DNA of 64,000 bases from a virus: IMG/VR virus record IMGVR_UViG_3300006226_000022; one strand, 5' to 3'. Positions within the stretch are counted from its first letter, which is position 1. Each line of letters opens with the position of its first letter. Shown piece after piece: positions 3,816 to 44,611 of this stretch. The notes below the pieces were generated by a model. The model worked only from the letters and a program-made list of their open reading frames with translations. It was not told the DNA's origin and ran no database searches. Made by a program: the position numbers and the translations under genes.

Positions 3816-4127
3816 TTATTTCAATCGCTCTTTAATACGACCTCGTTCCATTTCAAACTGCTTGGCTATTCTGGCATACTGCGATTCGTCAGTTATACGT
3901 TTGCCCCAGAAAAAGCATTGATCTGCTTTATCAAATCGATAAAAATTTTCGACTTCTGTGACCGCATCATTAACACGTACCATCAGTTTATCGTTTTCTC
4001 GATAAACTACCGCCACGTCGCCGTCTAACACGCCATTAAAACCGCATTCGTAAACGCCGGGTTCGGTCGGTAAGTTTGAAAGAAACGGTTTATCTTCATT
4101 TTTTCCACACGCGCATTTAATCGTCAT
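3816..4127 (-). CDS. hypothetical protein
   Basis: 103-aa minus ORF. Confidence 0.35.
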   Translation of the reverse strand: MTIKCACGKNEDKPFLSNLPTEPGVYECGFNGVLDGDVAVVYRENDKLMVRVNDAVTEVENFYRFDKADQCFFWGKRITDESQYARIAKQFEMERGRIKERLK

Positions 4128-4192: not shown

Positions 4193-4870
4193 TCATGTCC
4201 ACAGCTTTGGTGGGTCAATCACATCATTCGTAACAGATGCTTCACCATAACCAGTAGAACCAAAAATCCCACCAAGATTTCGACTATTATCTGCCACTGT
4301 CATTGCAGAATAATCAGGCTGGGGCGTGGTGCTCGTTCTGACACGAAGAGCCTCAGACAATTTATTCAAATCCACTGAAGGCATCCTGTCCAAATCATCC
4401 GCAGTGTAGACCCCCGATGTATTCAAAAGGATATTATTGATGGCTTTACTTCGTAATTCTCTTCGCGCAACAATCCCCTCATTCAAAACAACAGTAAACG
4501 GCGTTACCGTAGTTTGTAAATATTTTTGAATTGCTCCCTCACTGACTGTCGCATTAGTCGTATTATACGAAAGTACAGACGGGCGTTTTACGCCGAACTT
4601 TTGAAGTGATGCCAATATTTGAGTTTCCGCCTTAACTGCATTTTGTAAATCTTCTTGGCAAAGGCGTAAATCCTCTAATAGGTTTTGAAGTTCTTCGGAA
4701 TTCGCAGAACTATTCGTAGTCTGAGTGTCTTTTTCAGGCACAGTGGCTAAACCTAATAAAATCTGCCGTAACACAGATTCCGAAAGCATTTCAAGTTCAC
4801 TCGCACTCTCTGGCGCAAATGTCGAATTCGGGTGATTTACTATTTGGTCAATGAGAGCGGGAACGGACAT
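4193..4870 (-). CDS. hypothetical protein
   Basis: 225-aa minus ORF. Confidence 0.4.
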   Translation of the reverse strand: MSVPALIDQIVNHPNSTFAPESASELEMLSESVLRQILLGLATVPEKDTQTTNSSANSEELQNLLEDLRLCQEDLQNAVKAETQILASLQKFGVKRPSVLSYNTTNATVSEGAIQKYLQTTVTPFTVVLNEGIVARRELRSKAINNILLNTSGVYTADDLDRMPSVDLNKLSEALRVRTSTTPQPDYSAMTVADNSRNLGGIFGSTGYGEASVTNDVIDPPKLWT

Positions 4871-4959: not shown

Positions 4960-6366
4960 TTACTGCGGCACTGTATCCGTTATTCTTTCCATTAAAAACG
5001 GGTCTTTTGTCAAATTCGAAAACAGCAACATGTTATGCAACTGTCGTTGCGAATCGACAACATTTTGTGCATGATACGCCTCAAGCAAATCTGGCACAAT
5101 TTCCATATTATTTGTCCGGCGATTTGTCGCAATAAACACGTCATTCGCCTGTACAGGATCAGTGCTTTCGGGAGTGGTCGAAGCATGCGCACCGCCAACC
5201 ACATCCGCCACATTGGATTCGGGAGCTTTGTACGCTTCCACAAAAATGTCAGGCCCTGGTACTATCTGCACATTAGGTTCGGGAAAATCGACAATTTGCG
5301 TTATGGGCGAAGCAGCATCTAGCGGCTTTATATCTGTTGCTTTAATTGCAGCTGCGGGGCCTGTAGACTGCGCTACAACTTGTGCAATGACACAAGCCAA
5401 ATCTTTACCATCAATCACCTTACTCCCCTCTGTGTCAATGATGACTTCAATCGACTGATCCGAATTCTGAACCTTACGGTAATTACGTATCACGTAATAC
5501 TTCTTACTATTTCGACTGATATCCAAACCGTCAGTGATGGGCGGAGCGTACCTGTCACCGAATCGCATTTCATCCACTGTCCGTTCTTCATCATTTTGTG
5601 TACGTGCGTTTTTCGAAGAACCAGTTTCTGATTTCATAGGTGTGTGTACAAGATAACTATTGTACTGACCTTTTATTTCATCATTGTAAAACACACCAAC
5701 TGAAGGAGCCTTGCGAAACGCATCCCAAACACGCCGAGGCACATCATAGTATGCATACTGCCGTCCGCCCTTAAATTCAACCGTCAAAGTGTTATCTGCG
5801 TGTTCATAAGCAATCCGGGTCAATACTGAGCTTTTTACCGGATACACAACGGCATTTGCCGTGCTATTTACCATACGGCTATTCCACAATGTGTTCAACG
5901 ACCGCTCTAAAGTCGTAATAACACGCCGCATATTCGCAGCGTATTTCCCAGAAACGCGATCCATTTCCGAACGTGCCTCTGACAAAAAATGTTCAGCATT
6001 TTCAATAGCTTCCGCAAAATTTTCAGGACTATTTTCGCTCATTGCACGAGTGAGGTATTGTACTGCAAATTTAACATTATTTTTCGCCCTTGTCGTTACA
6101 ACATTTACGGTACGACTATTCCACAATGTATTTAACGACCGTTCTAAAGTCGTTATAATACGCCTCATATTTGCTGCGTATTTCCCCGAAACACGTTCCA
6201 TTTCCGATCTCGCCTCTGACAAAAAATGCCCTGCACTATCAATAGCATCAGCGAAATTTTCAGGGCTGTTTTCACTCATTGCGCGAGTGAGGTATTGTAC
6301 AGCGAATTTGATATTATTCTTCGCTCTAGTCGTTACAACATTATCTGTGCGATTTGAAGTAGCCAT
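4960..6366 (-). CDS. KTSC-domain protein with two tandem 79-aa repeats; paralog of 6469..7758
   Basis: Repeat NVVTTRAKNN(I/V)KFAVQYLTRAMSENSPENFA... occurs twice. C-terminal YPVKSSVLTRIAYEHADNTLTVEFKGGRQYAYYDVPRRVWDAFRKAPSVGVFYNDEIKGQY matches the KTSC domain. Shares RFGDRYAPPITDGLDISRNS and NYRKVQN motifs with the next gene. Confidence 0.5.
   Translation of the reverse strand: MATSNRTDNVVTTRAKNNIKFAVQYLTRAMSENSPENFADAIDSAGHFLSEARSEMERVSGKYAANMRRIITTLERSLNTLWNSRTVNVVTTRAKNNVKFAVQYLTRAMSENSPENFAEAIENAEHFLSEARSEMDRVSGKYAANMRRVITTLERSLNTLWNSRMVNSTANAVVYPVKSSVLTRIAYEHADNTLTVEFKGGRQYAYYDVPRRVWDAFRKAPSVGVFYNDEIKGQYNSYLVHTPMKSETGSSKNARTQNDEERTVDEMRFGDRYAPPITDGLDISRNSKKYYVIRNYRKVQNSDQSIEVIIDTEGSKVIDGKDLACVIAQVVAQSTGPAAAIKATDIKPLDAASPITQIVDFPEPNVQIVPGPDIFVEAYKAPESNVADVVGGAHASTTPESTDPVQANDVFIATNRRTNNMEIVPDLLEAYHAQNVVDSQRQLHNMLLFSNLTKDPFLMERITDTVPQ
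5875..6349. repeat. 2 x 237-bp in-frame tandem repeat inside 4960..6366
   Basis: Both the real frame and the mirror ORF 5861..6379 show a duplicated 79-aa unit. Confidence 0.7.
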
Positions 6367-9618: not shown

Positions 9619-12012
9619 TTAAAACTGAATCGTAAACGCAGACGTAGCCCCAAAATCAGAAAACTTGGGTTGTGCCAAACCGGAATAAACCACACCATCA
9701 AAAGTACAACTTACAGGCACCCATGTGTATGTAATATCTATGCCATTGGTTATAACCGCCGACGGCATACCCCAATCTTTCGTAATAATAAATGGTCTGC
9801 CCATTGGATAATCGTCCCAATCATCTATGGTCAATCCTGTGGATTCCATCCAAGGTGCCGAATCGACAACAACTGGCTGAATAATAATTGTCCGCTTTGC
9901 CCCTTCAAAGGCATTCCAACCAGGAGTGCCATGCTGTTGCACCAAATCAAAATAATCCTGCGTCGGAACAGGAACAAGTGCAGAATTCATCTGCATTGCT
10001 TCCGAAATAGTTTTCGGCATAAGCACCCCCCAATACCCAGCCATAGCCGGTATCGCAGCAGCCTTGTACACATGTATTTCAAACGGCGTTGCGACCACCT
10101 CTCCAAATCGGTCAATCATTATCGTTTGAGTCCCAGAATCCTCAGCAGTTACCGTAACAGCAAGGCGATAAACTACACCACTATCCTTGGTGAGTTCCCC
10201 TTTGATCAGTCCTGCCGAAAGAACAATCTCAGCCGCCATCAAATCAGAGGTAAGCGATGCTACATTCTCCGTAAACGTAATCGTCAATTCAGTTGTGCTT
10301 TCAGTATCACTACCATTAGCAGTAACCGTAAACTGCGCTAAAAGTGGAATCGGCTCGTACTTAAAAACAGCAAACGTCCGCTCATTAGCTGAAATTCCAT
10401 CACGTGTTACCGCCAATGTGCCAACCCCAGGTGTTTCAGCAATTATCGTTAATCGATAAGCATTAGTACCATCTTTCACCAACGCACCAGCTGTTATATT
10501 TGATGAAAGTATAATTTCAGATAGTTGCAAATCACTATCCAAATCACCGTCAAACACAATCAGCAATTCCGTAGTACTTGTAGTAACGCCGCCATTAGCC
10601 GCAACTGTAAACTCAATAGGTGCTGGTTCATACTTAAAGACAATAAATGTCCGTGCTACCTCAGACACCCCATCACGACCTATCGCCAATGTACCAACTC
10701 CAGCCATTTCAGTAGCTATAGTCAAGCAATAAGTACCGTCACTATTCTTCACCAAATCATCTGCTGTTAAATTCGCTGAAAGAGTGATTTCAGAAAGATG
10801 TAAATCGTTCTCCAGATCACCATCAAACACAATTAACAATTCTGTAGTACTTTCGACATCACTACCGTTAGCCGTAACAGTGAATTCGATAGGCGTAGGT
10901 GCCGGTTCGTACTTAAAAACAGTAAACGCTTGTGCGATATCGGATACGTCATCACGATCAATTGTCAACAAGCCATCCCCTGCCGTTTCAACGGATATCG
11001 CCAATCGATAAATATCACCGCTTTCCTTCGTTAACGTACTTGCAACTACATTTGACGAAAGCGTAATTTCTGAAAGCAATAAATCGCTCTCTAAATTTTT
11101 GTCAAACGTTATCAACAATTCCGTTGTAGTTACTGTGGCGCTACCATTTGCCGTAACCGTGAACTGTATCGGCGGCAGAACAGGTTCGTATTTAAACACG
11201 GTAAACGTCCGCTTTGTATCAGAAATTTCCTCACGATCAATCACCAACGTACCAACTCCCGCTGTTTCAGTAATCACTGCCAATCGGTATGTACTATCAC
11301 TCTCTTTCATCAGCGAATCTGCTGCCATATTCGCCGAAAGCATAATTTCCGAAAACAACAAATCGCTTTTCAACTCTTTATCAAATACAATCAGCAATTC
11401 CGTTGTGCTCTCTGTGCTACTTCCATCCGCTGTTACCGTGAAGCCAATCGGCGTAAGTTTGGGGGCAGGCGGCTCCGGTACATGAATATGAGCAGGTAAT
11501 CGAACTATGAATTTCCTAGCATCTATATGAACTTCAGTTGCAGGCGGCGAATCCGTTTCTCCGTCAAGGTCTACAAGCCATTCTGGATACAAGCAATAGG
11601 CACCGCCAACAGTAACATTCCCTGCGGGAATCGGCGTGTAACGATAATTACCTTCTCCACCGTATGGACGTTTCAGTGCAAGATGCAACAAATAATTGCC
11701 TGGCGGAATACCAAAACTTACAGTGGGGGCTATAAACACCTCAAAATAGGGGAGATTTCCAACAGGTTGTTCTAACAACCGAGTCAAATTAACAACTTTG
11801 ATCCCATTCGGTGTCCGAATTGAAAAATCCACCATAGTTCCTTGAGGCAGTTGCGCATCACCAGGAATGGTAAAAACAAAACGAAAGCAAGGAGTGTCAC
11901 CAAACATCCATGACAATCGAACATTATTGCTGGATCCTACGGAAAAAGCCATAGATGCATCCCCAATCAAAAGTGAATATTCAATATAGGCGCATTCTAC
12001 AATAAAAATCAA
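9619..12012 (-). CDS. tail-fibre / receptor-binding-like protein with five tandem Ig-like repeats and a C-terminal domain
   Basis: Five ~86-aa repeats of pattern FTVTANGS..TTELLI(V/T)FD..L.SDL.LSEI.LS.N....L.K.....YRL.I..E..G.GTL.I.RD......F.VFKYEP; C-terminal domain duplicated as gene 8479..9051. Confidence 0.55.
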   Translation of the reverse strand: MIFIVECAYIEYSLLIGDASMAFSVGSSNNVRLSWMFGDTPCFRFVFTIPGDAQLPQGTMVDFSIRTPNGIKVVNLTRLLEQPVGNLPYFEVFIAPTVSFGIPPGNYLLHLALKRPYGGEGNYRYTPIPAGNVTVGGAYCLYPEWLVDLDGETDSPPATEVHIDARKFIVRLPAHIHVPEPPAPKLTPIGFTVTADGSSTESTTELLIVFDKELKSDLLFSEIMLSANMAADSLMKESDSTYRLAVITETAGVGTLVIDREEISDTKRTFTVFKYEPVLPPIQFTVTANGSATVTTTELLITFDKNLESDLLLSEITLSSNVVASTLTKESGDIYRLAISVETAGDGLLTIDRDDVSDIAQAFTVFKYEPAPTPIEFTVTANGSDVESTTELLIVFDGDLENDLHLSEITLSANLTADDLVKNSDGTYCLTIATEMAGVGTLAIGRDGVSEVARTFIVFKYEPAPIEFTVAANGGVTTSTTELLIVFDGDLDSDLQLSEIILSSNITAGALVKDGTNAYRLTIIAETPGVGTLAVTRDGISANERTFAVFKYEPIPLLAQFTVTANGSDTESTTELTITFTENVASLTSDLMAAEIVLSAGLIKGELTKDSGVVYRLAVTVTAEDSGTQTIMIDRFGEVVATPFEIHVYKAAAIPAMAGYWGVLMPKTISEAMQMNSALVPVPTQDYFDLVQQHGTPGWNAFEGAKRTIIIQPVVVDSAPWMESTGLTIDDWDDYPMGRPFIITKDWGMPSAVITNGIDITYTWVPVSCTFDGVVYSGLAQPKFSDFGATSAFTIQF
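10170..11457. repeat. about 5 x 258-bp tandem repeats encoding Ig-like domains
   Basis: Periodicity visible in the protein and in mirror ORFs 10784..11011 and 11099..11485. Confidence 0.65.
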
Positions 12013-12041
12013 GCACCAATGACTTTTCTAGGCATTTCTTA

Positions 12042-12404
12042 TCAACGCATGGCTGCGGTGTTTCCACCGCCACACCCAAAACATCTACCTTTGGGCAAAC
12101 TAGCCAATCTATCAGAAAATATTTTTCGTGAAACGTTCAATAACTCAGAAACCGGTGCTCCTTGCGTATTTTGAGCACCTGTACGTGTGTTTTGAACATT
12201 TATATCTTTCGAAAACGAACCGCTTTTAGGTGTCTGAGGCACATGTATTGTTCTCTGATATGACTGCACCTTTGGCGTGTACTCGCTACACTCCGAACAA
12301 GTTAGCAAACATGTGTTAGGCTGACCTATCAAACAAACTATCTTTCGTGACGGAATTCCCCCATCACAATTTTCCATAATCAGGTGCGCATGTAAACAAA
12401 TCAT
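12042..12404 (-). CDS. hypothetical Cys-rich small protein
   Basis: 120-aa minus ORF preceded by a palindrome-motif copy. Confidence 0.3.
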   Translation of the reverse strand: MICLHAHLIMENCDGGIPSRKIVCLIGQPNTCLLTCSECSEYTPKVQSYQRTIHVPQTPKSGSFSKDINVQNTRTGAQNTQGAPVSELLNVSRKIFSDRLASLPKGRCFGCGGGNTAAMR

Positions 12405-12434
12405 TTTAATTATAAAATATTTAATAATTAAAAT
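12405..12434. promoter_or_regulatory. intergenic palindrome copy (TTTTAATTATAAAATATTTAATAATTAAAA)
   Basis: see 7878..7907. Confidence 0.5.
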
Positions 12435-15400
12435 CTAACTTTGACCGGGGATCGGGATTGGCGGTAATACTCTGAGGTGATTTATCCACTGCGTCGTATG
12501 TACAGGTATCAAACACATCCTGTCATTTAGCGTCTCTCGTGTCAACACCGTCATATCATGCACAAACACAGGAGCACAATTATCAGTTGCTGTAAACGAT
12601 ATCCCATCAACGTGTGCAGCCCTAACTGCATTCCCATACGGGATAGACTCGCATCGAAAACCACAAAGGTACTTTCGCCCCATAGCATCCATTTTATAAA
12701 ACCCGCCCCTCACATGAGGCCATTTTAAATCATTAACAACCCCATAAGGATTCCGACTATCTATCGCCCCTGTTTCTTTTTTTTGCTTAATACTCACCGC
12801 CACATGCTGCCCCGGAGACAATACACGGACATCAAACGTTTCAGGTACAGTATATCTTCTCAAAATCATAGACTCATACACATCTTTAAACATCGGATCG
12901 TCAGGATAAGGCAACCGAGGTCTATCACCTCTATAACCACTGCTCACCCATTCCGCAAGTGCTAATTCGTAATCCCGCACAGCATCCACGTATTCCTTTA
13001 CTTTTTTTCGTACAAGCACATTCTTCACTTCATACACGTATACGTCTATTTTAGGCGTTCCACACACATTTACAGTGTATTGCTGCGGCGGAGCGGTCAC
13101 TAGCGCGTATTGCCACGTATGTCTATCTATTATGCGTTTTTTGCCGCTTTCATCGGATTTATCATAAAGCGGACGATTGTACATGTCAACAGCTGGCATG
13201 CGATATTCTGCCGTTTGCGAAGTAAAACCAACAATCTCACCGGGTATCAGTATTTCATTTTGATCCAAACTAGGACAAAACGCCAATAAATTATGGCGCT
13301 GCGCCTTTTCTTCAGACAAAGTCAATTTCCAATTTTGCGGAGGGATGGGCTCCACTCGACATTTCGGGATACTTTGTAGCAAAAATGCTTCGTTAAACCG
13401 CTCTCGGAATAACTTGGCGTACTGCTCCGATACAGATTCGTGTAACGTGCGTATTAGTTTTTCCCCTTCTCTTTGCCGCCATACACGATTATTTATAAAT
13501 AAAGGTGGATTATTTGGATCAATAACTTCTCCTGTATTCGTCACCTTACCACGCTCTACCTGTGGATCAGCCATAATCAATGGCAAAAAATACCTATCCA
13601 GCAAATCTAAAAAGCCGCACATAAGCATTTCCCAAAATGTATCCACTCGGCTTTCTTCAGCTGGGAAATTTCCACTACCGTCCGTGTGCCCCCATATATT
13701 CATGTACGCCGCGTACAAATCCAACTTATTCGCCGTCTCAAAATGACCATAATCCAACAACGTCCCATCACTATCATAATCAGGCATTCTCAAATGATCC
13801 GCCCAATACCAATGCCATCCGACATTATATCCCGGAAAATCTGGCTTATAATCTGCCAATAAATTAGTTGTCGGAATGGGTTCGTAAACCGTCGGTCTTA
13901 TCGACTGCAATCCAGGCAACCAGCCACTGCCAAAAAAAGACAAATCTAACTGATCTTTAATTCCCGAATGAAGTCCTTCAGGTGCATAATCGCGAAAAAA
14001 CAATCCTAAAATACTACGATAGTTCAATCGTGTGCGTCTATTCGGCGAAAGGCTATTCTGCTGATTCGCCATTCGATCACCACATAATGACGCAAGTCTG
14101 TCTATGAACGTCACCGGGACTGACTCATCATGTTCACTATTTGGCGGTATCTGATAATACTTATCTTGGAACTTTTCCAACGAAAAACTATGAGGCTCAA
14201 ATATTATCGAATCCGCCAGCATCTCATACAGTTTCCAAAAATTCCCCAAAGCCGACATCGGCAAAGAATCTATCGTCGGCAAACCCGCTCGCAACAAAGA
14301 CGCAAGTTCTTTCAAATATTCTTCTTTAAACGTATTGACAAATCGAGTGTAAACGGCATACGCAGCACGCTTAAACCTCGGCATAAAAAGCGTCTGGAGA
14401 TTTTCTCTAAACGTATCCCACAATGTGGCATAAAACTCTTCTGGTGTAGGCAACTCAAACTGCTCCCACTCACCAGCATTGTTAATAATGTAAAATTCCT
14501 GACCTCCAACGGCATAAACTATTGCGGTTGTGCCGACAGTCGCTGTGGGATAAAACGTACTCAGCTCTTCAAATGATGTAAACTCGTATGTTGTGTTGCC
14601 TATACTAAATCCAAATGGGATATCCGTTTTTAACATTGTCAACGACAGACTTTGCCAAAATAACGACTCATACATCTGTCGAAAACTCTCTTTTTGGGCT
14701 TCAAAAAGCCCTATAAACGAAGCCCCAGCCGGAATTTGCCCCAGCCGGATTTGTACATAATCAGCCCATGCATTACTTCGTGTCGCCAAAAACGCTTGAT
14801 TTACAGCCTCGGCTGTCACAACCAACGGATCAATAAGTCTGGCTATGTTTGAAGTACACAACGCAGTTTCATCATACATTGGTACATAATCAGGCGAAGG
14901 AAGCGGTGGCGGTGCCCAATCTTTCACATCTATCACCCAATCTTCCATCACTGCATGCATCCACGATTTCATTTCAGTGGACATCCAACCAACGTAAGAT
15001 TTAAGTGTTTGGGCTATTTCCAAATATCTGCCATCGCCTCCAACAAGATTCTGAACATCTCTCTCTGATTCCTCGGTCATCAACTCCAAATAAACACCAT
15101 TCAGAAGATTACTGTAATGTGCAAATACATGATTTTCAAGATACCCATGAATCTGCGAGACATAATCGTCAACATAACTATAAACCTGTTCAGCATCTTC
15201 AAACAAGAACAGTTGTGCCTGCATCTCAAAAACATCTTTATACCACTCGCCTCTATCAGCAATAAAAATAGCGACAATACTGGCGGGATTCCCATTGACT
15301 TCTCCAATCTCTGTATTAAGCCCATTCTCGGGACTATAATACATTTCAAAATTAGGACAAATCAGTGTGGGGATATTCAAATTAGGAAGAGTCTGCGACC

Positions 15401-37390: not shown

Positions 37391-37447
37391 AGAATTTCAG
37401 CAAAAAGACAATCTATTATAAAAATAACTCACTATAATAGAAATAAC

Positions 37448-38068
37448 TTACCTATCGGCTAGCCGATAAATATGCGGTACTTCTGACTGTAAACATTCAA
37501 TCAAACTTATAACATCAGCCGGATCTATATTCCGCAAAAAATCAGTTAATGGCAAACAAAGCACTCTATTAAGTCTGTCATGCCCACCCAGAACACCCCC
37601 AATCGAAACATATTGACAACCAATCACTTCTGATTCTTTTGCTATACGTTCATACTCAAATTGGGGCAAAAGAGCCAATGTCTTCGCCCTATCCTTTTTA
37701 GCTATAATCAACCAACTTCTTGCATTTGCGTCAGCCTGTGATTTTGCCGCCTGCTCTATCCATTCCTCAAACACAGAAAGCTTTTTACTATCTCGGTCAA
37801 CCGCTCGCTGAATCTCAAAAAATTTATAACCCCGTTTAATCTCAGTAGAAAAATACTTAATAAAAGACTCACCAACTGAATCCAAATAACATAAATCACC
37901 GGCTGAATTTGCCGTAGTTTTATTTTTAACAGCACGACTTGTCGCGCGAGCCCCAGAGCTGGTACTGCGCCAAAAAATATCATCTCGCTTATCGCCAGTC
38001 CACCAACGAGACAGTAGTACCGCCACTTCTCGCTCGAACCGACTGCCTTTCGCTTTTGGGTTTTTCAT
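37448..38068 (-). CDS. Hjc-like Holliday-junction resolvase / PD-(D/E)xK nuclease
   Basis: KAKGSRFEREVAVLL ... RSTSSGA ... GDLCYLD ... TEIKRG follows the archaeal Hjc motif order (KG..ERE..LL / R.AGS / D(L/I).. / E.K). Confidence 0.45.
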   Translation of the reverse strand: MKNPKAKGSRFEREVAVLLSRWWTGDKRDDIFWRSTSSGARATSRAVKNKTTANSAGDLCYLDSVGESFIKYFSTEIKRGYKFFEIQRAVDRDSKKLSVFEEWIEQAAKSQADANARSWLIIAKKDRAKTLALLPQFEYERIAKESEVIGCQYVSIGGVLGGHDRLNRVLCLPLTDFLRNIDPADVISLIECLQSEVPHIYRLADR

Positions 38069-38082
38069 ACATGATAATAAGA

Positions 38083-38880
38083 TTATGACTGCGTTTTCGC
38101 AGCCTTTTGCGCATCAAATTGCGCTTTAAATCGCACATATTCTTCCGGTGTCATTTGTGTAGTCCCTGCAGGCGGACGTGGTACATCCCCACCAGATGCT
38201 GTATTTTTCTTACTCATTGCTTCTAATTCAAGCAATCTCCGATGTTCTTCAGGTAACATAAACAAATACGAATACGTTTGAAACGGGGTCATGTTCATGA
38301 CTTGCTCCGTACTAAATCCATACCGTTCTGCCAATCCACGAAACACTCGCACCATCGCCTCGGCATCAGGGTCTTCTAAAAATGTCTCTAACTCAGGTTC
38401 ATTCTTTGGAGGCAACGACTGCTGCTTGGGGTAGGGGACGACCACTGCAAGCTGAACTTCTCGGAGTAAAAGTGCCGCTTGCGGGCTTACATGATTTAAC
38501 GGGCAACATTTTTCCCTAACCCATTCTTCTGTAACTAGCGGGGTGGATTTCGCACAATACGCGGCAAATGTCATGCAATACACATCGACGTTTGTAAACA
38601 TGAAAATCTGACCATCACCGTATTCCACAGACAAAGTCCGTGCTTTTTGTACAAGATCTCCCAACACTTCTGTTTTGATATCTTCGGGCGTATTTTCTAA
38701 AAGTCGCCGATGCTGTGCTAAATACGACTGACGCATTTTAGTATTGAGCGTCTGTGCTACATGAATTGTCAACGGACTCAAAAGAATATCCCTGCCGAAC
38801 AAAGTAGCAGGGATAGGCACACCCACAAGCATTTGCGAATGGGTAGGCGGGATATAAGAAAAAACATCAGGCGGAATCAT
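38083..38880 (-). CDS. hypothetical protein
   Basis: 265-aa minus ORF. Confidence 0.4.
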   Translation of the reverse strand: MIPPDVFSYIPPTHSQMLVGVPIPATLFGRDILLSPLTIHVAQTLNTKMRQSYLAQHRRLLENTPEDIKTEVLGDLVQKARTLSVEYGDGQIFMFTNVDVYCMTFAAYCAKSTPLVTEEWVREKCCPLNHVSPQAALLLREVQLAVVVPYPKQQSLPPKNEPELETFLEDPDAEAMVRVFRGLAERYGFSTEQVMNMTPFQTYSYLFMLPEEHRRLLELEAMSKKNTASGGDVPRPPAGTTQMTPEEYVRFKAQFDAQKAAKTQS

Positions 38881-38915
38881 TACGCTTCAAATAATCTACG
38901 AAAATCTAATATATT

Positions 38916-40319
38916 CTATTTTTCAAATCCAACCGTTCCAAAATGATAAACTTTTGTTATATTAGAAACAGAAATTGATTTCTTCTCACCATCTTTCATA
39001 ACCAAAACTTGTTTTCCATAACTATGGCAACCTTTTGAAACATATCGTTTCTTTCCAACCCAAACTAAATCGCCAGGCTGGATAGCATATCTTCTACGTC
39101 TGATTGTTATCTGCCTTCCAGGCTTTTGAACCTGTAACGATCTATTATTCTTACGCCGTTCTGCCAATAACAACGGTTCCGACAATAATTGATTTGTTCC
39201 ACCAGCAATTACAAACGCATCGTTATAATGTGTTTTAGGTAAGCCTAACTCATTTCGTTTCACTTGCGTTATGTAACCAAAAGTCTCAACAATATCAGGA
39301 TAACGTTCACGTAATCGCTTACGCAATATGTTCATAAAAGTCTCTGCCTTATATTGTTTGTTCTTTTTCAATACACTGAAGTCATTTTTATCATGCATAA
39401 CCCGATGACAAGTATCATGCAGCAATGCCATATTATCCGGCTTATCTGTACCACCATTAGCCACATGAATTATGTGATGCATTTCTATTCGTTCGCCTTT
39501 TTCTATTTTCTTGCCACAATATTGACAAATTCCATGCTCTCTAGCAAACAAATAATTCCGCAGATTAGTGCGAAATAATTTACCCTGTTGATAGCCTACA
39601 CCCTGTATTTCAGGGTTTTCTAACTTCTGCATGTCAAAAGAACCACTCTCTGTCCTGATCTCAGATACAGGGCATATTGCGCGTAACTTATCAATCTCGC
39701 GATAATGCCGGTTTATCCGACGATCTACTGATGGAGGTACATCCTTATTGCGATGACTCGCTCTGTTCTTCCAACGTGCAGGGCGATAGCGGCATTTGCG
39801 ATTACGCCGACTACGGCGATACATCGCTCGTGTCGATAAACGCTCGGACATTTTATTGTCCAGCTTTATCTGACCTAGTGCATAGCAATACTTACCGACT
39901 AAGGCAAATCCAATGTAACCATATCCTTCATCTATGCCTAATGGTATAGGCTGCGTTGCACCTCCTACATGCGTTGTTAACTTGATTGTAAAATATGGTC
40001 TAGCTGAAACCACTACAGCTTTTCTCCCCTCTAGTAACTTACGAGCTTTTCTAGGCTTGCACGGCATAAGAGGTGTACCATTTGCGTCCAGTACAAAAAC
40101 GTGCACACTTTCAACCGCTACCTTTCGGAGCTGTTCGGGCTGTGCGTCCCGTTGATCCACTTCGGCGTGATCCAATCCAGTTTCGGTAAATAAATCTACC
40201 GTCCCCGCCGCACTGTCGCTTTCGCGACTGTTTAGCGACAGGGTTACAGAGCGACCGACTAGTGGAGCATCTGCCGGTGTGTTCTGAAACTCTAAAGGTA
40301 TCGTCTGTTTTCTAACCAT
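38916..40319 (-). CDS. iscB: IscB-like RNA-guided nuclease (PLMP, RuvC-I, arginine-rich bridge helix, RuvC-II, HNH, RuvC-III); true start probably GTG at 40106
   Basis: HVFVLDANGTPLMPCKPRKARKLL (PLMP motif), LGIDEGYGYIGFALV (RuvC-I, GID), RAMYRRSRRNRKCRYRPARWKNR (RRxRR bridge helix), SEIRTESGSFDMQKLENPEIQGVGYQQG (RuvC-II), HHIIHVANGGTDKPDNMALLHDTCHRVMH (HNH), KTHYNDAFVIAGG (RuvC-III). The first 71 codons of the ATG-initiated ORF overlap the structured candidate omegaRNA and are probably not translated. Confidence 0.75.
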   Translation of the reverse strand: MVRKQTIPLEFQNTPADAPLVGRSVTLSLNSRESDSAAGTVDLFTETGLDHAEVDQRDAQPEQLRKVAVESVHVFVLDANGTPLMPCKPRKARKLLEGRKAVVVSARPYFTIKLTTHVGGATQPIPLGIDEGYGYIGFALVGKYCYALGQIKLDNKMSERLSTRAMYRRSRRNRKCRYRPARWKNRASHRNKDVPPSVDRRINRHYREIDKLRAICPVSEIRTESGSFDMQKLENPEIQGVGYQQGKLFRTNLRNYLFAREHGICQYCGKKIEKGERIEMHHIIHVANGGTDKPDNMALLHDTCHRVMHDKNDFSVLKKNKQYKAETFMNILRKRLRERYPDIVETFGYITQVKRNELGLPKTHYNDAFVIAGGTNQLLSEPLLLAERRKNNRSLQVQKPGRQITIRRRRYAIQPGDLVWVGKKRYVSKGCHSYGKQVLVMKDGEKKSISVSNITKVYHFGTVGFEK

Positions 40320-40400
40320 AAAGTATAATTAAAAGTGACCGCCTAGATCCCTAACTAATGCACAGAATTACGTAGAATATCCTACATAATTAAACACTAG
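40107..40400 (-). ncRNA. candidate omegaRNA of the IscB locus
   Basis: Immediately 5' of the IscB core on the same strand. Minus-strand sequence holds several GNRA-capped hairpins (GTCGC-GAAA-GCGAC within CTGTCGCTAAACAGTCGCGAAAGCGACAG; GGATCACGCCGAAGTGGATC; GCTCC-GAAA-GGTAGC). Boundaries are approximate. Confidence 0.35.
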
Positions 40401-40867
40401 TCATGAACCATACTGGGATTATCAGAGGTATTGACAGAATGCGCGTTTTGCACACCGACCAAAACTTGCATTTCGGGGATATTCGGATACAATACCCCCA
40501 ACATAGCGATTAAAGCGTTCGTCCCTGTCTCCACCATAAAACCATCAGGATACAAAATATCATGAAATTCTTCAAACGTCATAGTATCCTGCTCGGCGAC
40601 GTGGCTGTACACAAATCTCGCAGCCCCATACACATTGGCAAACATCATGCTCCTACCATCGCCGAATTGGGTTGACAATATCATGGCTTTGTCCAGAACA
40701 TCGAGCATAAAACTCTTCTGAACAGTATCCGGCAATAACTTCACCGTTTCATTCGCCTGATTTATGTACGTCTGCCTCAACCATGAATCAATAGAATCCA
40801 CATCTTTGACCGTAGGTGTTCGCAAATTTATCTCACGTCCATTTGATAGGGTATAGGGTGTACTCAT
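40397..40867 (-). CDS. hypothetical protein
   Basis: 156-aa minus ORF. Confidence 0.4.
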   Translation of the reverse strand: MSTPYTLSNGREINLRTPTVKDVDSIDSWLRQTYINQANETVKLLPDTVQKSFMLDVLDKAMILSTQFGDGRSMMFANVYGAARFVYSHVAEQDTMTFEEFHDILYPDGFMVETGTNALIAMLGVLYPNIPEMQVLVGVQNAHSVNTSDNPSMVHD

Positions 40868-40924
40868 AAGTCAAAGTTCAAAGAAACAAGTCAAAAATAA
40901 TAGAAAATGTCACCAAAATAACAA

Positions 40925-41437
40925 TTACGTAAACCGCACAGTGTACGTCACGTCAAACAAATACCGTCGAGAACTGCCGTCCAATCCTCTATCACGAATC
41001 GTCTCTAAACGATTACATGTCAATGCCGTACGAACTTCAGCAGACTGCGGCTCGTCATTCCTCTTTTTGAATTCACCAAGATTGTCATCAGGTATAGCCA
41101 CTACGTAATTTTTCAATGTGTCCAATGTCCGAGCTATATGATGTATTTTTGTCAAACCAGCAACATAATCCGTTGTCCGCACACAAATCTTAACGTTTGC
41201 CTGTTCCAACGGAATACCATCGCTTATGTATTTACCGCGTTCAGCCTGAGTATAATCCACGTCCAAAACAGCAATGAAATTATTAGGACATGTGGAAAAA
41301 TCCGGCATTTTTAAACAAGAAATTGCATACCACGCATTCGGATCGCGAGCGGACGGGTCGTTGGGCATGTCATCGATACTTACACAGAAACCCTCTAATA
41401 CCAAAATCTGAAAAATACCATGCGCAGGTGTTAACAT
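40925..41437 (-). CDS. hypothetical protein
   Basis: 170-aa minus ORF. Confidence 0.4.
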   Translation of the reverse strand: MLTPAHGIFQILVLEGFCVSIDDMPNDPSARDPNAWYAISCLKMPDFSTCPNNFIAVLDVDYTQAERGKYISDGIPLEQANVKICVRTTDYVAGLTKIHHIARTLDTLKNYVVAIPDDNLGEFKKRNDEPQSAEVRTALTCNRLETIRDRGLDGSSRRYLFDVTYTVRFT

Positions 41438-41772
41438 TATTTTTTCTCAGAAGGAAGTCGCAAATCAGGAATTTCTACAGGAGGCTTGGGATCTCGCGTG
41501 AAATCATCAAAATGACGATTTCCTATCCTGTCAGGTTGTGCGGTTATTATTCCCACAACAAACATGTTTCTATCGCCTCCGTACATTTTTCGTTTTAACG
41601 CAAAGTCGTCAGAGTTAGCAGAAACACGGGGCGCAGGAGTGTTCTGAATGGCTATTTCAGGCGAAGTGGCTAGTGTGTGTTTCGTACCGTCATAAGAAAA
41701 ACCACGAGTGGTGGTTTTACCGGACGGGACATCAATGGGCGAAGCGACTATTTTCATGGGTCTTAAAAACAA
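41437..41772 (-). CDS. hypothetical protein
   Basis: 111-aa minus ORF; start overlaps the upstream stop. Confidence 0.35.
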   Translation of the reverse strand: MFLRPMKIVASPIDVPSGKTTTRGFSYDGTKHTLATSPEIAIQNTPAPRVSANSDDFALKRKMYGGDRNMFVVGIITAQPDRIGNRHFDDFTRDPKPPVEIPDLRLPSEKK

Positions 41773-41850
41773 AATGCTTTTCGCCGATTATAGCAGAAAT
41801 CAAACCTATGATTTTTCAAATTATCTTATACAAAACAGAGATAGTTAATA

Positions 41851-41887
41851 CAAAAAAAGACTACCATTAAACCGCTTAATGGTAGTC
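41851..41887 (-). terminator. rho-independent terminator (minus strand)
   Basis: gactaccattaa-accgc-ttaatggtagtc perfect 12-bp stem, followed on the minus strand by TTTTTTTG. Confidence 0.55.
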
Positions 41888-42219
41888 CAGCTCATAGTGT
41901 ACTTGACAAATTACGACTCCGAAGAGAATTACTATATGCCAAGTTTTATCCTCTCTCGCTTCCCACCCCGAGCGTTCCCAAGCGAGTAGAGCAGCCCTAT
42001 CCATAATCAGTTTGATGGATGCTAGCGGTTAGGATCCACCTTCCTCCTTTCATTTCCTGACTAACAGTACTATTTATCATACTATTATCAGTTAATACAA
42101 AGATAAAGAAATGTCCAAATATCATAAATTGCAAATTGTAAAACGGGGCTAAAATCACAGCTGCGGCGAGTTCGTCAAAACCGCACAACAAGAAAATTCC
42201 AACCCCCTTGTTCGAAAAT

Positions 42220-42426
42220 TTACCAACCATCTGAGCGAAATACAACAAAATTGCTCGTGTCACCGATGCGCTCTGCTAACTTTTGGCGAGCGGTGTCGTA
42301 TGCCTGATCCACGTTGCGATGTAAGCTATAATCTCCTTCGACCTCAACTTGATGGAGTTGCGTGAATCCGCACTCATCAGCTGTTTTGCTTTTGAAGTGA
42401 ACCACGATTTTTCTGGTGTTTGCCAT
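42220..42426 (-). CDS. small hypothetical protein
   Basis: 68 aa; palindrome copy 42495..42524 upstream. Confidence 0.3.
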   Translation of the reverse strand: MANTRKIVVHFKSKTADECGFTQLHQVEVEGDYSLHRNVDQAYDTARQKLAERIGDTSNFVVFRSDGW

Positions 42427-42517
42427 TATTTTGTTCTGTGGTTTAATGTTGTAATTTACATGGTTACAAAATTATGAAATTTACAAAACAATACTTTAAT
42501 TATTAAATGTTTTATAA

Positions 42518-44611
42518 TTAAACTTTTGAAAACAGCCGCTTATCATAGTTCACATTTATTTCATGCGATGTTTTTTCTGCCCAAGATTTACCTAACGGTG
42601 CGACATCAGCTTCTACTGTCATAGGCACAGTCAGCCACGGATGCAATAGAGGTACTCGTACGGTCATCCAGTAATGGCATAACTGCAAAAATCGCTCCAG
42701 CTCTGCTTCCGGCACATCTGCCACTATCGAATCGTGTATTTCATTTATGAGCAACGTGCCAGGAAACATTTTAGTACCATCGGCGTTTGTAAGCGTCTGT
42801 AAATCATTATGAATGCCGCAAAGTGCTGTCAAAAGACAATGGGCGGCACTACATTGAGACGGCGTATTAGTCGCCGAATTTCTAGGAATCACACCACCAA
42901 CACGAAATCCATCGGGCGTGTCCACATAACCTTTTTGCTGTGCTTCCCTAAACACATCCTTTTTCCAATCTCGGTATCCGCTAAATAACAAATCCCAAAA
43001 CTCTCGTTCTATATTTTGAATCAAATACTCGTAACTACCGGGCTGGGGTCGATCTCCATTGGACAAACATGTTATACCTTTTGACCGCAGATGATCACAT
43101 AATAGCGTCCCATTTTTAAGTTTCAATCCAGCTATTTGTATCGTATCCCATAACGCCAAGGCCATCTGTTTCCAATACGACCCATAAAATGCAGCGAATG
43201 TAAAATCCCCTTTAACCGACTGGCGCATATCTTTGGTTATATCCGCCTCATCTAACAAATAAATCTTTGACGCTACCCATCTATGAAAATCCAACCCTTC
43301 AGTAATACTCTTCACAAGCGTCTTGTCATGATTCACTGACGCGCTTGTACAAACCTCAATTCCAGAAAAATCCACTTCAACAATATGCCTATTTTTAGCC
43401 CGAGGCACAAACAATGTACGGACGAGTTTTTGTACAACCTTATTGCGTGCGGGTATATTCTGAACGTTAGGTTCTTTACAAGAGTTATGTACCACCAGTT
43501 CATTCGCTACAAAATTAGAATAACCGCTCACTTCCAAATCATACACATCTACTTCGATGCCCAAATCCTCTACACGAAGAATTTCGTACACAGACGTTTC
43601 GACCGTGAGTTCTGGTGTTCTATCCCATTTACGGCGTTTGTAGTACATATTAGGCGAATGAATCGATAATACACACCTGTTATAGGGAGAATTAGGCTTG
43701 AATGCATCCGACTTATATTCCAGCACATTTTGCGCTTCGCAATATTCGCCGTCCGCCATACGCACACGATGATCCGGCGTACAATCCAAATATGCTTGTC
43801 TGCCATCATGTAGAACATAATGCAACCGAATAATCTTTTTCCTACCTGTTTTCCACTGATTTTTGACTTTAACAACCGTTGGCTCCAAATTATCATCAAG
43901 ACAATACACATAATTTCCAGGCTTCACATCTGATATACGGATTTTCTTGACTGTTTCCACACCGCGATCATAAAAACACGTTAAAATTTGCGCGCCTGCT
44001 GCCAAACAAGTCCGGTACGTAATTACCGATAAAAGCGAAAAACTCGGATGAACGAAATCATCTTTATCTATTGTGGCTTCCAAACCGACAATATACGTAC
44101 TACGTAATTTGAGCATAGACTGATAGTCCGCATACAAAAATATAAAATCTTTAATATCGGGGTATTTTGCCGTCAGACGGTACAAAGCCTTTTTGTCCAT
44201 TTCAAGAGCTTCATCTAACGTCAGGTCATTCACTTGTAACCGCAAACCGTGCACTTTATCAGTAAATAAAACCTGAGCCAACTCGTTACGGTTCGACCAC
44301 GTAGGATTTTTAACAATACGCTGCCAACGTTGCCCTATGTCCATCTGAGCCAATTTCTGCTCATAGTCGGCTATTATATCACCAGCTTCTTTTTTATTTT
44401 GCTCTAATCGAGCACGGTCAATTTTCAGCCCATTTGCTTCGATAGCAGCCAAAACACGCTGACTTTCAACAAAAAGAGAAACTGCGGTATCTACTGTGTG
44501 CCAAGTGGTCTTACCGGGCGATGTATCTTTGTGAATTTTTTGTTTAATATGCATAACAAAAATCAATCCATGACATACTATAATAGAAATTACAATCGTA
44601 CAGAAAAGCAT
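42518..44611 (-). CDS. family-A DNA polymerase (polymerase domain only) interrupted by a mini-intein
   Basis: Extein: ...SLLSVITYRT|...|SCKEPNVQNIPARN (Pol I TGRLSS.PNLQNIP motif), EVDFSGIEV (motif A), RQSVKGDFTFAAFYGS (motif B), EIHDSIVADV (motif C). No 3'-5' exonuclease domain. First ~19 hydrophobic codons may not be translated (alternative Met at codon 20). Confidence 0.75.
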   Translation of the reverse strand: MLFCTIVISIIVCHGLIFVMHIKQKIHKDTSPGKTTWHTVDTAVSLFVESQRVLAAIEANGLKIDRARLEQNKKEAGDIIADYEQKLAQMDIGQRWQRIVKNPTWSNRNELAQVLFTDKVHGLRLQVNDLTLDEALEMDKKALYRLTAKYPDIKDFIFLYADYQSMLKLRSTYIVGLEATIDKDDFVHPSFSLLSVITYRTCLAAGAQILTCFYDRGVETVKKIRISDVKPGNYVYCLDDNLEPTVVKVKNQWKTGRKKIIRLHYVLHDGRQAYLDCTPDHRVRMADGEYCEAQNVLEYKSDAFKPNSPYNRCVLSIHSPNMYYKRRKWDRTPELTVETSVYEILRVEDLGIEVDVYDLEVSGYSNFVANELVVHNSCKEPNVQNIPARNKVVQKLVRTLFVPRAKNRHIVEVDFSGIEVCTSASVNHDKTLVKSITEGLDFHRWVASKIYLLDEADITKDMRQSVKGDFTFAAFYGSYWKQMALALWDTIQIAGLKLKNGTLLCDHLRSKGITCLSNGDRPQPGSYEYLIQNIEREFWDLLFSGYRDWKKDVFREAQQKGYVDTPDGFRVGGVIPRNSATNTPSQCSAAHCLLTALCGIHNDLQTLTNADGTKMFPGTLLINEIHDSIVADVPEAELERFLQLCHYWMTVRVPLLHPWLTVPMTVEADVAPLGKSWAEKTSHEINVNYDKRLFSKV
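43484..44008 (-). mobile_element. mini-intein (175 aa, residues 202-376 of the polymerase ORF)
   Basis: Starts CLAAGAQILT (block A), contains TPDHRVRMADGEY (block B TxxH), ends VYDLEVSGYSNFVANELVVHN followed by +1 Ser; no homing-endonuclease domain. ORFs 43385..43669 (+) and 43570..43911 (-) inside it are artefacts. Confidence 0.7.

Follow-up and report, generated by a model that had tools for sequence, protein, structure and literature searches.

The locus described here lies in a viral genome fragment of 64,000 nucleotides (IMG/VR record IMGVR_UViG_3300006226_000022; hereafter the window) and raises two questions: whether a compact RNA-guided nuclease gene in a phage is a domesticated gene or a mobile element, and where its translation begins when the first codons coincide with a guide RNA scaffold. 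Cas9 descends from IscB-omegaRNA systems, which are also under development as compact genome editors. The phage context of the window is given by a portal protein, a UvsX-like recombinase, a RusA-like resolvase, PolA and a primase. The initial annotation placed an IscB (OMEGA) nuclease and a candidate omegaRNA at 38916-40400. The locus was correct, but its boundaries had to be moved, as the scaffold begins at G40409, the predicted guide occupies 40410-40425 and the element continues to 38884, which is 32 nt past the stop codon. The element and its coding parts are as follows.

38884..40409, minus strand: whole inserted element, 1,526 nt, composed of the omegaRNA scaffold, iscB and a 32-nt 3' tail
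38916..40319, minus strand: iscB ORF, 467 aa, from the conserved ATG 40319
40319-40107, minus strand: residues 1-71, an RNA-dictated leader, predicted to be disordered
40104..40106, minus strand: GTG at the start of the core, codon 72, 213 nt inside the ORF as first described

Profile searches and structural modelling indicated that the ORF encodes an intact IscB in which the catalytic residues are all present, and nuclease activity is predicted. Residues 72-467 form the IscB core with the following order: PLMP, RuvC-I, bridge helix, RuvC-II, HNH, RuvC-III and a C-terminal beta domain, with PLMPC at aa 83-87. The Pfam profiles RRXRR (PF14239; aa 74-246, E 1e-52, 178.8 bits versus a cutoff of 25) and HNH (PF01844; aa 265-310, 50.6 bits versus a cutoff of 21.4) both matched, as did the NCBIfam equivalog guided_IscB (NF040563; aa 74-372, 295.6 bits versus a cutoff of 175). 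Moreover, D130, E224, H281/H282, H364 and D367 were invariant in a 30-sequence alignment and aligned to D61, E193, H247, H340 and D343 of OgeuIscB. The AF2 model showed the overall IscB fold without a REC lobe, with a pLDDT of 85-94 in the core, and its top Foldseek matches were IscB-omegaRNA complexes (best 8csz_D, E 5e-23). Known IscBs were therefore the best matches of the window protein in both sequence and fold, and the domain order and catalytic residues are shared with OgeuIscB (PDB 7xht, 8csz) and with GstIscB of ISGst (Meers et al., PMC10055086). These profiles, residues and fold bear out the full IscB domain order that had been read from the letters alone.

Judged from covariation, the 5' ~300 nt of the element is a HEARO-type omegaRNA with the following parts.

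40107..40409, minus strand: omegaRNA scaffold, ~300 nt, of which 40409-40151 is the HEARO-equivalent part
40346..40409, minus strand: 5' domain of the scaffold, stem P1 enclosing a 10-bp hairpin (40391-40366)
40164..40343, minus strand: long-range helix, GGCG (40343-40340) with CGCC (40167-40164)
40151-40136 and ~40130-40112, minus strand: extra 3' hairpins of the scaffold, beyond the HEARO-equivalent part

The covariance search that had been proposed as a check returned a local match to Rfam HEARO (RF02033, the IscB omegaRNA) at 40291..40179(-) with an E-value of 6e-9, but its 51.7 bits lie below the gathering score of 83. Of the 211 model positions, only 82-187 are covered by the match, and the window scaffold fitted the model poorly in its 5' domain. 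Among the relatives, L054 reached 115.5 bits over the full length and passes the gathering score, followed by L052 (70.3), L045 (64.3) and L046 (52.0); in L054 the match (1577-1814) overlaps the ORF, which starts at 1661. A full HEARO was also found upstream of 12 homologs. The scaffold shares with HEARO the central two-hairpin core, the long-range helix and the 3' motif CGAAGUGGAUCNAC, and its own 3' motif CGAAGUGGAUCAAC agrees with the HEARO 3' consensus. Unlike HEARO, it has a diverged 5' domain and two more hairpins beyond the 3' end of the model; RF02033 is known to omit downstream elements (Meers et al., PMC10055086). In comparison with known IscB omegaRNAs, P1 is longer here (13 bp), and only one 5' hairpin out of two has been retained.

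The single-sequence fold of 40425..40107 had an MFE of -104.8 kcal/mol (z = -4.24), and the structure was conserved across nine clade members, as had been expected of a genuine scaffold. GNRA-capped hairpins had been reported upstream of the GTG, and GAAA-capped hairpins are indeed present in this region. Covariation was assessed from the Rfam matches and from explicit pair counts in nine clade sequences, in which 95.7% of the pair cells were paired, versus a mean of 85.7% after shuffling and 26-40% with slid partners. Compensatory changes occurred in 25 of the 59 predicted pairs among the nine relatives, a number reached by 0 of 500 shuffles. Together with the partial HEARO match, these pairs uphold the initial placement of an omegaRNA over the 5' part of the ORF. 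In particular, stem P1 joins 40409-40397 to 40358-40346 with 12 of 13 pairs, the 5' domain appeared in both the MFE and the centroid folds, and this helix (helix 1) was 89.7% paired. The 5' arm of P1 provides the upstream phage gene with its TAG stop and with the codons (VHD) that directly precede it. The long-range helix (helix 2) corresponds to the helix bracketed as a 'pseudoknot' in the Rfam HEARO model and was 100% paired in the nine sequences, with a two-pair change to GGUA/UACC in L053. A small hairpin at 40173-40154, in which a C>U change in the contig L042 would turn G-C into G-U, was dropped because its 5' arm is part of the long-range helix in the consensus structure.

The scaffold thus extends over the first 71 codons of the ORF, and the start codon probably lies within it. 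The initial annotation regarded the GTG as the true start and these 71 codons as spurious. Between the conserved ATG and the core, 0 stops were counted in frame 0, versus 115 and 96 in frames +1 and +2 (22 relatives, kinship ignored). ATG 40319 was invariant in the clade alignment, and in L045, L052 and L054 an indel of -16 nt followed by one of +1 nt restored the frame, while the remaining leader indels were multiples of 3. Furthermore, the GTG at the core was replaced by GCG in L042 and L051 and by GCC in L043 and L052, and no ATG, GTG or TTG was present within 12 codons of the core start in L043, L051 and L052. In the window, 39 of the 45 genes lacked a Shine-Dalgarno motif and started with ATG or TTG after AT-rich leaders. 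ATG 40319 likewise follows an AT-rich leader, whereas the leader of the GTG is GC-rich and structured, unlike those of the other genes of this phage.

A start at GTG 40106, with the 71 codons called in error where the omegaRNA is purely non-coding and with a copy domesticated by the phage, is therefore unlikely in view of the frame-specific absence of stops, the invariant ATG, the restored frames and the four relatives without a start codon at the core. That reading would agree with the guided_IscB and RRXRR profiles, which both begin at aa 74, with the solved IscBs, which begin at the PLMP strand, and with a leader that is predicted to be disordered and shows no constraint at the amino-acid level. 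Such N-terminal insertions are moreover routinely trimmed in the field (PMC13180657 methods), and a stop in the leader is tolerated in L042. In this contig, which is 98.7% identical, leader codon 56 is changed from CAA to TAA and codon 72 from GTG to GCG, which would mean either that IscB is dead in that copy or that both proposed starts are dispensable. The 71 codons upstream of the core are unlikely to be an artefact of annotation, and IscB is most likely translated from ATG 40319, which sits in an unpaired, AU-rich linker of the omegaRNA. A second, internal initiation is possible at the GTG, since the window itself has this codon at the core start.

Conservation of the 71 codons as protein had been named as evidence against an omegaRNA, and this proved half right: the open frame and its ATG are conserved, but the amino acids are unconstrained. 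The median dN/dS of the leader was 0.85 (pS 0.09-0.5), versus 0.11 in the core (pS 0.45-0.85), and by this measure the leader is under RNA constraint rather than amino-acid constraint, with only the frame and the ATG preserved. It could be supposed that the 71 residues are a true extra protein domain and the RNA-like signals incidental, as a protein alignment of this extension is possible over 30 homologs, with identities as low as 42%, and shows Q5 invariant and N13, P15, L29 and S36 near-invariant. This is extremely improbable, because the most conserved HEARO hairpin, when translated, gives the conserved peptide NTPxxAPxxGxSV, synonymous sites are constrained as much as non-synonymous ones, 25 pairs show compensatory change, and residues 1-70 have an AF2 pLDDT of 27-39 with no secondary structure. 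As the conservation of the leader acts on nucleotides, it is no argument against the omegaRNA, and both readings hold together. The 3' 213 nt of the scaffold appears to be doubly used, as RNA and as codons of a 71-residue disordered leader.

This arrangement differs from that of the characterised IscBs, which begin at the PLMP strand and have the RNA as a 5' UTR, whereas the clade ORF begins ~70 codons upstream with its ATG in the scaffold. It resembles TnpB, whose ORF is overlapped at the 3' end by the omegaRNA (PMC10278001), in that one DNA stretch holds both nuclease codons and scaffold, so that in both cases mRNA and guide RNA would come from one transcript. Unlike in TnpB, it is the 5' end with its start codon that is shared with the RNA, and the codons concerned are free of amino-acid constraint; the corresponding codons of TnpB encode part of the folded protein. 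Among viral loci, frame 0 was open for at least 45 codons in 17 of 38, versus 0 of 38 in each other frame, and the extended frame was open in 35 of 74 genome loci, versus 6 and 5 in the other frames (kinship ignored in both counts). These counts suggest an extended open frame in about half of the IscB loci sampled. We give about even chances to the wider proposal that a large IscB clade of phages, bacteria and archaea is translated from a conserved AUG in its own omegaRNA, with ~170-220 nt of dual use as scaffold and as codons of a disordered leader under selection for frame and start alone. An overlap between the IscB ORF and its omegaRNA was not directly described in the literature searched, the original papers (Weinberg 2009, Altae-Tran 2021) being outside its scope. 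If the overlap is real, pipelines for ortholog curation that trim the N-terminal extension remove a true feature, and the finding bears on the coupling of IscB expression with RNP assembly and on the cloning of natural loci. The two fates of the transcript, message or guide, would then be coupled, and IscB could repress its own translation by binding the scaffold. N-terminal amino-acid conservation produced entirely by RNA constraint is also a caution for protein-family models.

Whether the gene is domesticated depends on its ends and surroundings, for which the following features are needed.

38884..38915, minus strand: 3' tail of the element, 32 nt, AAUAUAUUAGAUUUUCGUAGAUUAUUUGAAGC, the LE side in IS200/IS605 terms
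40410..40425, minus strand: predicted guide, 16 nt, CUGAUAAUCCCAGUAU, directly 5' of the scaffold
38878..38883, minus strand: tentative candidate TAM GTAATG, directly 3' of the element; it would lie 3' of the guide match in an empty allele
40397..40867, minus strand: upstream phage gene, 156 aa, no known family, with homologs P0122-P0128
38083..38880, minus strand: downstream phage gene, 265 aa, no known family

Homologs of the upstream-gene protein led to the related phage contig L050, the single empty site available, in which the flanks are collinear with the window and 83-89% identical, the element including its 32-nt tail is absent, and the downstream gene directly follows the upstream gene. 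L050 reads ...CCTATG TAAA TAATGATTCC, and the window reads ...CCCAGTATG[GTTCATGAC...GAAGCG]TAATGATTCC, where the outer brackets enclose the element. The insertion produced no target-site duplication, and its ends are ambiguous by one G, as 38883-40408 is equally possible. The insertion point coincides with the stop codon of the upstream gene, within a co-directional gene array, and the element brings a new stop, by which the natural end ...PM* was swapped for ...SMVHD*. The same element was found in at least eight other phage-like contexts with differing neighbours (L043-L046, L051-L054); a ninth locus, L055, repeats L054. The left end GGTTCAYGAC is common to nine clade loci and the right end is related to ..TTTGAAGC in most of them, with similarity running from GGTTCA to ..GAAGC and exact positions uncertain by 1-2 nt in most of the relatives. 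The tail is common to L043, L051 and L052 and has a diverged form in L045, L046 and L053.

Obvious IS ends had been reported as lacking, a statement that the precise ends given by L050, with which eight other insertions agree, overturn. The accompanying suggestion of a domesticated copy is contradicted by the empty site, the multiple insertion contexts and the decay of L042. On this comparative evidence, the element is mobile and selfish and not a domesticated gene, because it has precise ends, eight independent insertions and a near-identical copy with a nonsense change. The absence of a tnpA partner was correctly noted, since no Y1 (HUH) TnpA was matched (Y1_Tnp) among the 36 window ORFs scanned, and none was seen in the related contigs examined; the element encodes iscB alone. 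The 32-nt tail showed no recognisable LE-side hairpin, and the RE side carries P1 and the 10-bp hairpin.

Among 50,697 phage records, neither megablast with 37400-42500 nor tblastn with the two neighbour proteins found a match, and this phage lineage is absent from INPHARED. In IMG/VR, no relatives of the neighbour protein and no match to the empty-site DNA pattern were found. Three matches to this pattern in metagenome contigs were dissimilar to the window and were attributed to chance.

In known IscB systems the guide is the flank adjacent on the 5' side (Meers et al., PMC10055086), and the same rule can be applied to this locus. The clade similarity ends exactly 5' of GGTTCA, and the sequence beyond is unrelated in all nine loci, that is, a variable 5' guide stands next to a constant scaffold in each. 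In the window the predicted guide is derived from the flank within the 3' end of the upstream phage gene; its length of 16 nt is assumed by analogy. The 5' guide segment, whose definition had been called for, matches the window only at its own site with up to 3 mismatches allowed. A 16-mer would have hundreds of chance matches in 596 Gb of genome sequence, and the flank already explains this guide. Several positions of the empty L050 allele disagree with the guide (CTGATACTCCT---AT versus CTGATAATCCCAGTAT), and guided cutting of the L050 allele itself is doubtful because of these mismatches. The flank after the element end was G[G/T]A in 6-7 loci, with GTA in the window and GGA in L043, L045, L046 and L053; it was GGC in L051, and the L050 junction reads TAT followed by GTAAAT. 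The pattern G[G/T]A is weak and can be put forward only tentatively as a candidate TAM.

The locus resembles known IscB loci in several respects: iscB is preceded on its own strand by the omegaRNA, the guide is provided by the flank adjoining on the 5' side, and the upstream gene is co-oriented. Transcription would therefore come from outside the element, and no terminator-like site was found to separate the element from the upstream gene. As in most IscB loci, which have been reported to be non-autonomous (Meers et al., PMC10055086), an adjacent tnpA is absent. The element also resembles non-autonomous IS200/IS605 (ISC) elements moved by TnpA in trans, as it is small, with precise ends, no duplication and one nuclease gene, and the cleavage-site trinucleotides on the presumed top strand would both end in CC or AC. 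Unlike these elements, it has no TnpA in the window or in the related contigs examined and no identified LE hairpin, its host is a phage genome, and it is inserted exactly at a stop codon for which it supplies a new one. Furthermore, it is similar to the free-standing homing endonuclease genes of phages (T4 Seg/Mob; PMC13565253), in that a small nuclease gene lies between two conserved genes, is present or absent among related phages and has decaying copies (L042); by analogy, spread would be expected through cutting of the empty allele in co-infection. Unlike phage homing endonucleases, it would have its target read by a flank-derived guide RNA and a TAM rather than by protein, and unlike typical homing-endonuclease islands its ends are discrete.

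The element is most likely a non-autonomous IS200/IS605-type IscB ('ISC') OMEGA element that cuts empty alleles and thereby spreads or persists. The fuller description, a compact 'ISC' OMEGA element at the stop of a phage gene with the IscB start inside the omegaRNA, is one that we hold to be fairly probable. Guide use, cutting, repair and TnpA in trans are taken here from the known IscB mechanism. A read-through transcript from the upstream phage gene would supply both guide and scaffold, its 5' 16 nt of flank serving as the guide, and IscB-omegaRNA would cut genomes with the uninterrupted site, where the guide match is followed by the TAM. In co-infecting or excised copies, the cut would force repair off the element-bearing genome, resulting in homing or retention, and new sites would need TnpA supplied in trans. 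It may further be speculated that translation of a transcript and its folding and binding as guide RNA exclude each other, and that IscB bound to its own message hides the start codon and thereby limits its own synthesis. No direct description of IscB homing in phages was found in the literature searched. A clean natural phage IscB element with an empty-site comparator provides exact ends, a guide and a testable target and TAM, so that RNA-guided homing from one co-infecting phage to another can be tested directly.

An inactive relic, in which IscB-omegaRNA drifts in the phage genome and cuts nothing, would fit the absence of TnpA and the departure of the RNA 5' domain from the HEARO consensus. 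It would also fit L042, in which the nonsense change alters C40154, an invariant omegaRNA nucleotide of the clade. This reading is nevertheless highly improbable, as the window ORF is intact with five catalytic positions conserved, the core dN/dS is ~0.11 across the clade, the RNA helices are kept by compensatory change, and an identical IscB protein was found in a second sample (L041).

An intact IscB is encoded on the minus strand of the window, and the main features of its locus are as follows.

38916..40319, minus strand: iscB ORF, 467 aa
40409-40397 with 40358-40346, minus strand: P1, the long (13-bp) 5' stem of the omegaRNA scaffold
40391-40366, minus strand: single inner hairpin of P1, 10 bp

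Pfam RRXRR was matched at aa 74-246 (E 1e-52) and HNH at aa 265-310, and the NCBIfam equivalog model for the RNA-guided endonuclease IscB scored 295.6 bits over aa 74-372, against a cutoff of 175 bits. The solved structures closest in sequence were IscBs, including TbaIscB and OgeuIscB. Moreover, the AlphaFold2 model, built with 30 homologs, was confident over the core (pLDDT 85-94 from residue 71 on), and Foldseek returned IscB-omegaRNA-DNA complexes as its top matches (best 8csz_D, E 5e-23). Residues D130, E224, H281/H282, H364 and D367 aligned with D61, E193, H247, H340 and D343 of OgeuIscB and were all unchanged across the 30-sequence alignment. These data agreed with the initial annotation, which had described an IscB whose conserved core starts at a GTG inside the annotated ORF; this GTG lies at 40106-40104 and is codon 72. 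Codons 1-71 (40319-40107) are referred to here as the leader and residues 72-467 as the core.

The omegaRNA proposed upstream of the core is real, and in the window it takes a divergent HEARO form, in which P1 is long and holds one inner hairpin. HEARO (Rfam RF02033) is now recognised as the IscB omegaRNA (PMC10055086). The covariance-model search matched it at 40291-40179 on the minus strand (E 6e-9, 51.7 bits), covering only model positions 82-187 of 211 and scoring below the gathering score of 83 bits. Full-length HEARO (84-120 bits) was found just upstream of the IscB core in 12 of 14 IMG/VR loci whose IscBs are 41-48% identical to that of the window, and L054, a relative with a more canonical 5' stem, was matched over the full length at 115.5 bits. 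When the DNA of closer relatives (IscBs 60-84% identical) was compared, nine distinct loci could be aligned from a common GGTTCAYGAC through to the IscB core (alignment A2). The structure was kept in these homologs, with compensatory changes in 25 of the 59 pairs of the RNAalifold consensus. Pair cells were paired in 95.7% of cases, against a mean of 85.7% with shuffled partners (a level reached in 0 of 500 shuffles), and pairing fell to 26-40% once the partners were slid by 1-3 columns. The long-range helix GGCG/CGCC (40343-40340 with 40167-40164), for example, is GGUA/UACC in the relative L053. Furthermore, three of four pairs covary in a hairpin at 40151-40136, past the 3' end of the Rfam model, which fits the remark of Meers et al. 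that RF02033 is without downstream elements (PMC10055086). The region 40425-40107 folded at -104.8 kcal/mol (z = -4.24).

Precise ends of the element were obtained from L050, an empty allele in a related phage, which reads ...CCTATG TAAA TAATGATTCC; the filled site in the window reads ...CCCAGTATG[GTTCATGACTAG ... TTTGAAGCG]TAATGATTCC. This comparison places the insert at 38884-40409 or, with one G ambiguous, at 38883-40408 (1,526 nt), with no target duplication. The L050 homolog of the upstream window gene (156 aa) is 89% identical, and 3 nt, without any iscB, separate it from the homolog of the downstream gene. In the window, the insertion parts the last sense codon of the upstream gene from its stop, and the element gives that gene 3 extra codons and a new TAG; the same bases form the 5' arm of P1. 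Similarity among the nine loci starts exactly at GGTTCA, the sequence 5' of which is unrelated in every locus, and the insert includes a 32-nt tail behind the IscB stop that is common to L043, L051 and L052 and occurs in diverged form in L045, L046 and L053. The genes adjoining the element differ in each contig examined, all being phage-like arrays of small co-directional genes. The absence of a tnpA partner was borne out, as no Y1 transposase was found among the 36 window ORFs scanned. The suggestion of a copy without IS ends, perhaps domesticated, was not upheld, since the empty site gives precise ends and the same unit stands in several contexts.

The decay of a near-identical copy, L042 (ENA ERZ27257348 k141_2658856), also argues for a selfish nuclease gene rather than a domesticated one. 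L042 is 98.7% identical to the window, with only 3 differences over 40900-38850, one of them within the upstream gene. C40154>T changes leader codon 56 from CAA to TAA and alters an omegaRNA base shared by all nine aligned loci (position 256 of A2), and T40105>C changes the GTG of codon 72 to GCG. Its gene caller reports two separate ORFs, of 55 aa and 383 aa, and the L042 IscB is probably compromised, whichever start is used. Such decay is the expected fate of a fixed selfish nuclease gene, not of a domesticated gene.

The start of translation was examined in 22 sequences (9 of the window's clade and 13 viral loci). Between the conserved ATG and the beginning of the core, the IscB frame contained no stops, whereas the two other frames contained 115 and 96, without correction for phylogeny. 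Frame 0 was open over 45 codons or more upstream of the core in 17 of 38 viral loci, the other frames in none, and frame 0 was open in 35 of 74 IscB loci from bacterial and archaeal genomes, against 6 and 5 in the other frames, likewise uncorrected. Most database homologs have gene calls of 445-478 aa and an N-terminal extension that can be aligned; where an IscB locus lacks the extension, a Met usually stands exactly at the beginning of the core. The ATG is unchanged across the nine-locus alignment and corresponds to a nearly invariant AUGCAG in the viral HEARO alignment. Leader indels among the nine loci are multiples of three, the one exception being a 16-nt deletion in L045, L052 and L054, with a 1-nt insertion 13 nt further on.

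The sequence leading into the ATG at 40319, ACUUUUAAUUAUACUUU, takes part in no pair of the consensus structure, and the sequence before the GTG is GC-rich and structured. The window retains this GTG at the core, which may serve as a second start (dual initiation); in L043, L051 and L052, no ATG, GTG or TTG was found within 12 codons of the core start. Like the one at 40319, almost all gene starts of the window are ATGs behind AT-rich leaders (e.g. 38880, 40867 and 41437), and a Shine-Dalgarno-like motif occurs at only 6 of 45 long minus-strand ORFs, which suggests Shine-Dalgarno-independent initiation in a host such as Bacteroidota.

The leader was rejected as a protein domain. Its pairwise dN/dS had a median of 0.85 with low synonymous divergence (pS 0.09-0.5), against about 0.11 and nearly saturated pS in the core; residues 1-70 were predicted with pLDDT 27-39 and no secondary structure; and the best conserved leader "peptide", NTPxxAPxxGxSV, is the most conserved HEARO hairpin, translated. 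The proposal that the 71 codons are spurious was supported for the amino acids, which show no constraint at that level and are predicted to be disordered, but not for the frame, which is open behind a kept ATG. The initial annotation had taken conservation of these codons as protein in related genomes to count against the omegaRNA; what the relatives keep is an open frame behind the ATG, with the constraint acting on the RNA, and the omegaRNA is not refuted. In our reading, the leader nucleotides are constrained as RNA, and the frame and start codon are kept in addition, so that the most likely place for translation to begin is inside the omegaRNA, the 3' two-thirds of which would then be read through.

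In the genome contigs (L056-L135), the ATG of the extended frame lies 56-67 codons upstream of the core, and its carriers include CPR bacteria, Omnitrophota, Chlamydiae, Bacteroidota, Thermoplasmatota and some Asgard MAGs. In many Borrarchaeota copies, by contrast, a stop lies 3 codons before the core, and the core itself does not begin with a Met.

As established for IscB elements, the transposon RE gives rise to the scaffold, the flank adjoining it on the 5' side serves as the guide, and the element is transcribed from outside (PMC10055086). By this rule, the predicted guide is 40425-40410, CUGAUAAUCCCAGUAU, and a flank-derived segment is indeed present 5' on the scaffold; no second match to the guide was found in the window. 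The upstream gene is co-oriented with the element, the typical arrangement according to Meers et al. (PMC10055086), and no terminator-like site was found between them. Upstream of the gene block running into the element, a strong terminator-like hairpin (41888-41858, minus strand; 14 pairs, then a T-run) is followed by a weak promoter-like site (41848-41820, minus strand), and the two could mark the start of the transcript supplying the omegaRNA. The bases directly 3' of the element, a candidate TAM, are GTA in the window, GGA in L043, L045, L046 and L053, and GGC in L051; the L050 junction is TAT|GTAAAT. Between the L050 allele and the guide there are several differences, among them a 3-nt indel, so that this allele may not be a substrate.

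From the known mechanism of the family, the RNP would recognise and cut the uninterrupted site by guide match and TAM, repair off an element-bearing genome would restore or spread the element, and moves to new sites would need TnpA in trans. Because the start codon lies within the scaffold, IscB bound to its own transcript could, speculatively, block its translation.

IscB-omegaRNA systems, the frequent absence of adjacent tnpA and the presence on viral contigs have already been published (PMC10055086 and others). The basic identification is ordinary. In the literature searched, no account was found of an omegaRNA in which an open frame and a start codon are under selection, although an earlier mention is possible, and an ortholog-curation protocol swaps such upstream starts for a downstream one (PMC13180657). 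The proposed dual-use 5' region and the clean phage empty-site pair are the reason for further interest. The observation of the initial annotation was confirmed, and its interpretation was supported in part.

The window is phage DNA, with ORFs for a portal protein, a UvsX-like recombinase, a RusA-like resolvase, PolA, a primase-like Toprim protein and a methylase. A 187-aa ORF (3250-3813, minus strand) matches the C-terminal half of TnpB alone (NCBIfam IS200_TnpB positions 171-355 of 360, E 4e-12; Pfam Cas12f1-like_TNB, 25.8 bits) and appears to be a second OMEGA-type nuclease gene in truncated form; no matches were obtained with the two ORFs that precede it (3816-4127 and 4193-4870). The family-A DNA polymerase ORF (42518-44611, minus strand) carries an intein-like insert with a Hint-like block ending ...VVHNS, and its L050 homolog is annotated Intein_splicing and DNA_pol_A; this insert would represent a further selfish element, some 2 kb away from that of IscB. 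In L044, a phage-like contig (IscB 73% identical), the IscB element has a full TnpB gene (11777-12919; OrfB_IS605 and Cas12f1-like_TNB) downstream at a distance of about 375 nt, which places two OMEGA nucleases side by side; a DNA methylase follows the TnpB gene. The IMG/VR locus L004 has two full HEARO RNAs (4535-4783 and 5717-5977), about 1.2 kb apart, which flank a tRNA gene (5460-5533) upstream of a single IscB; a partial IscB (L038) is on the same contig. Finally, about 80 aa are duplicated in tandem in a 468-aa window ORF (4960-6366, minus strand), where NVVTTRAKNN[IV]KFAVQYLTRAMSENSPENFA...LERSLNTLWNSR occurs twice.
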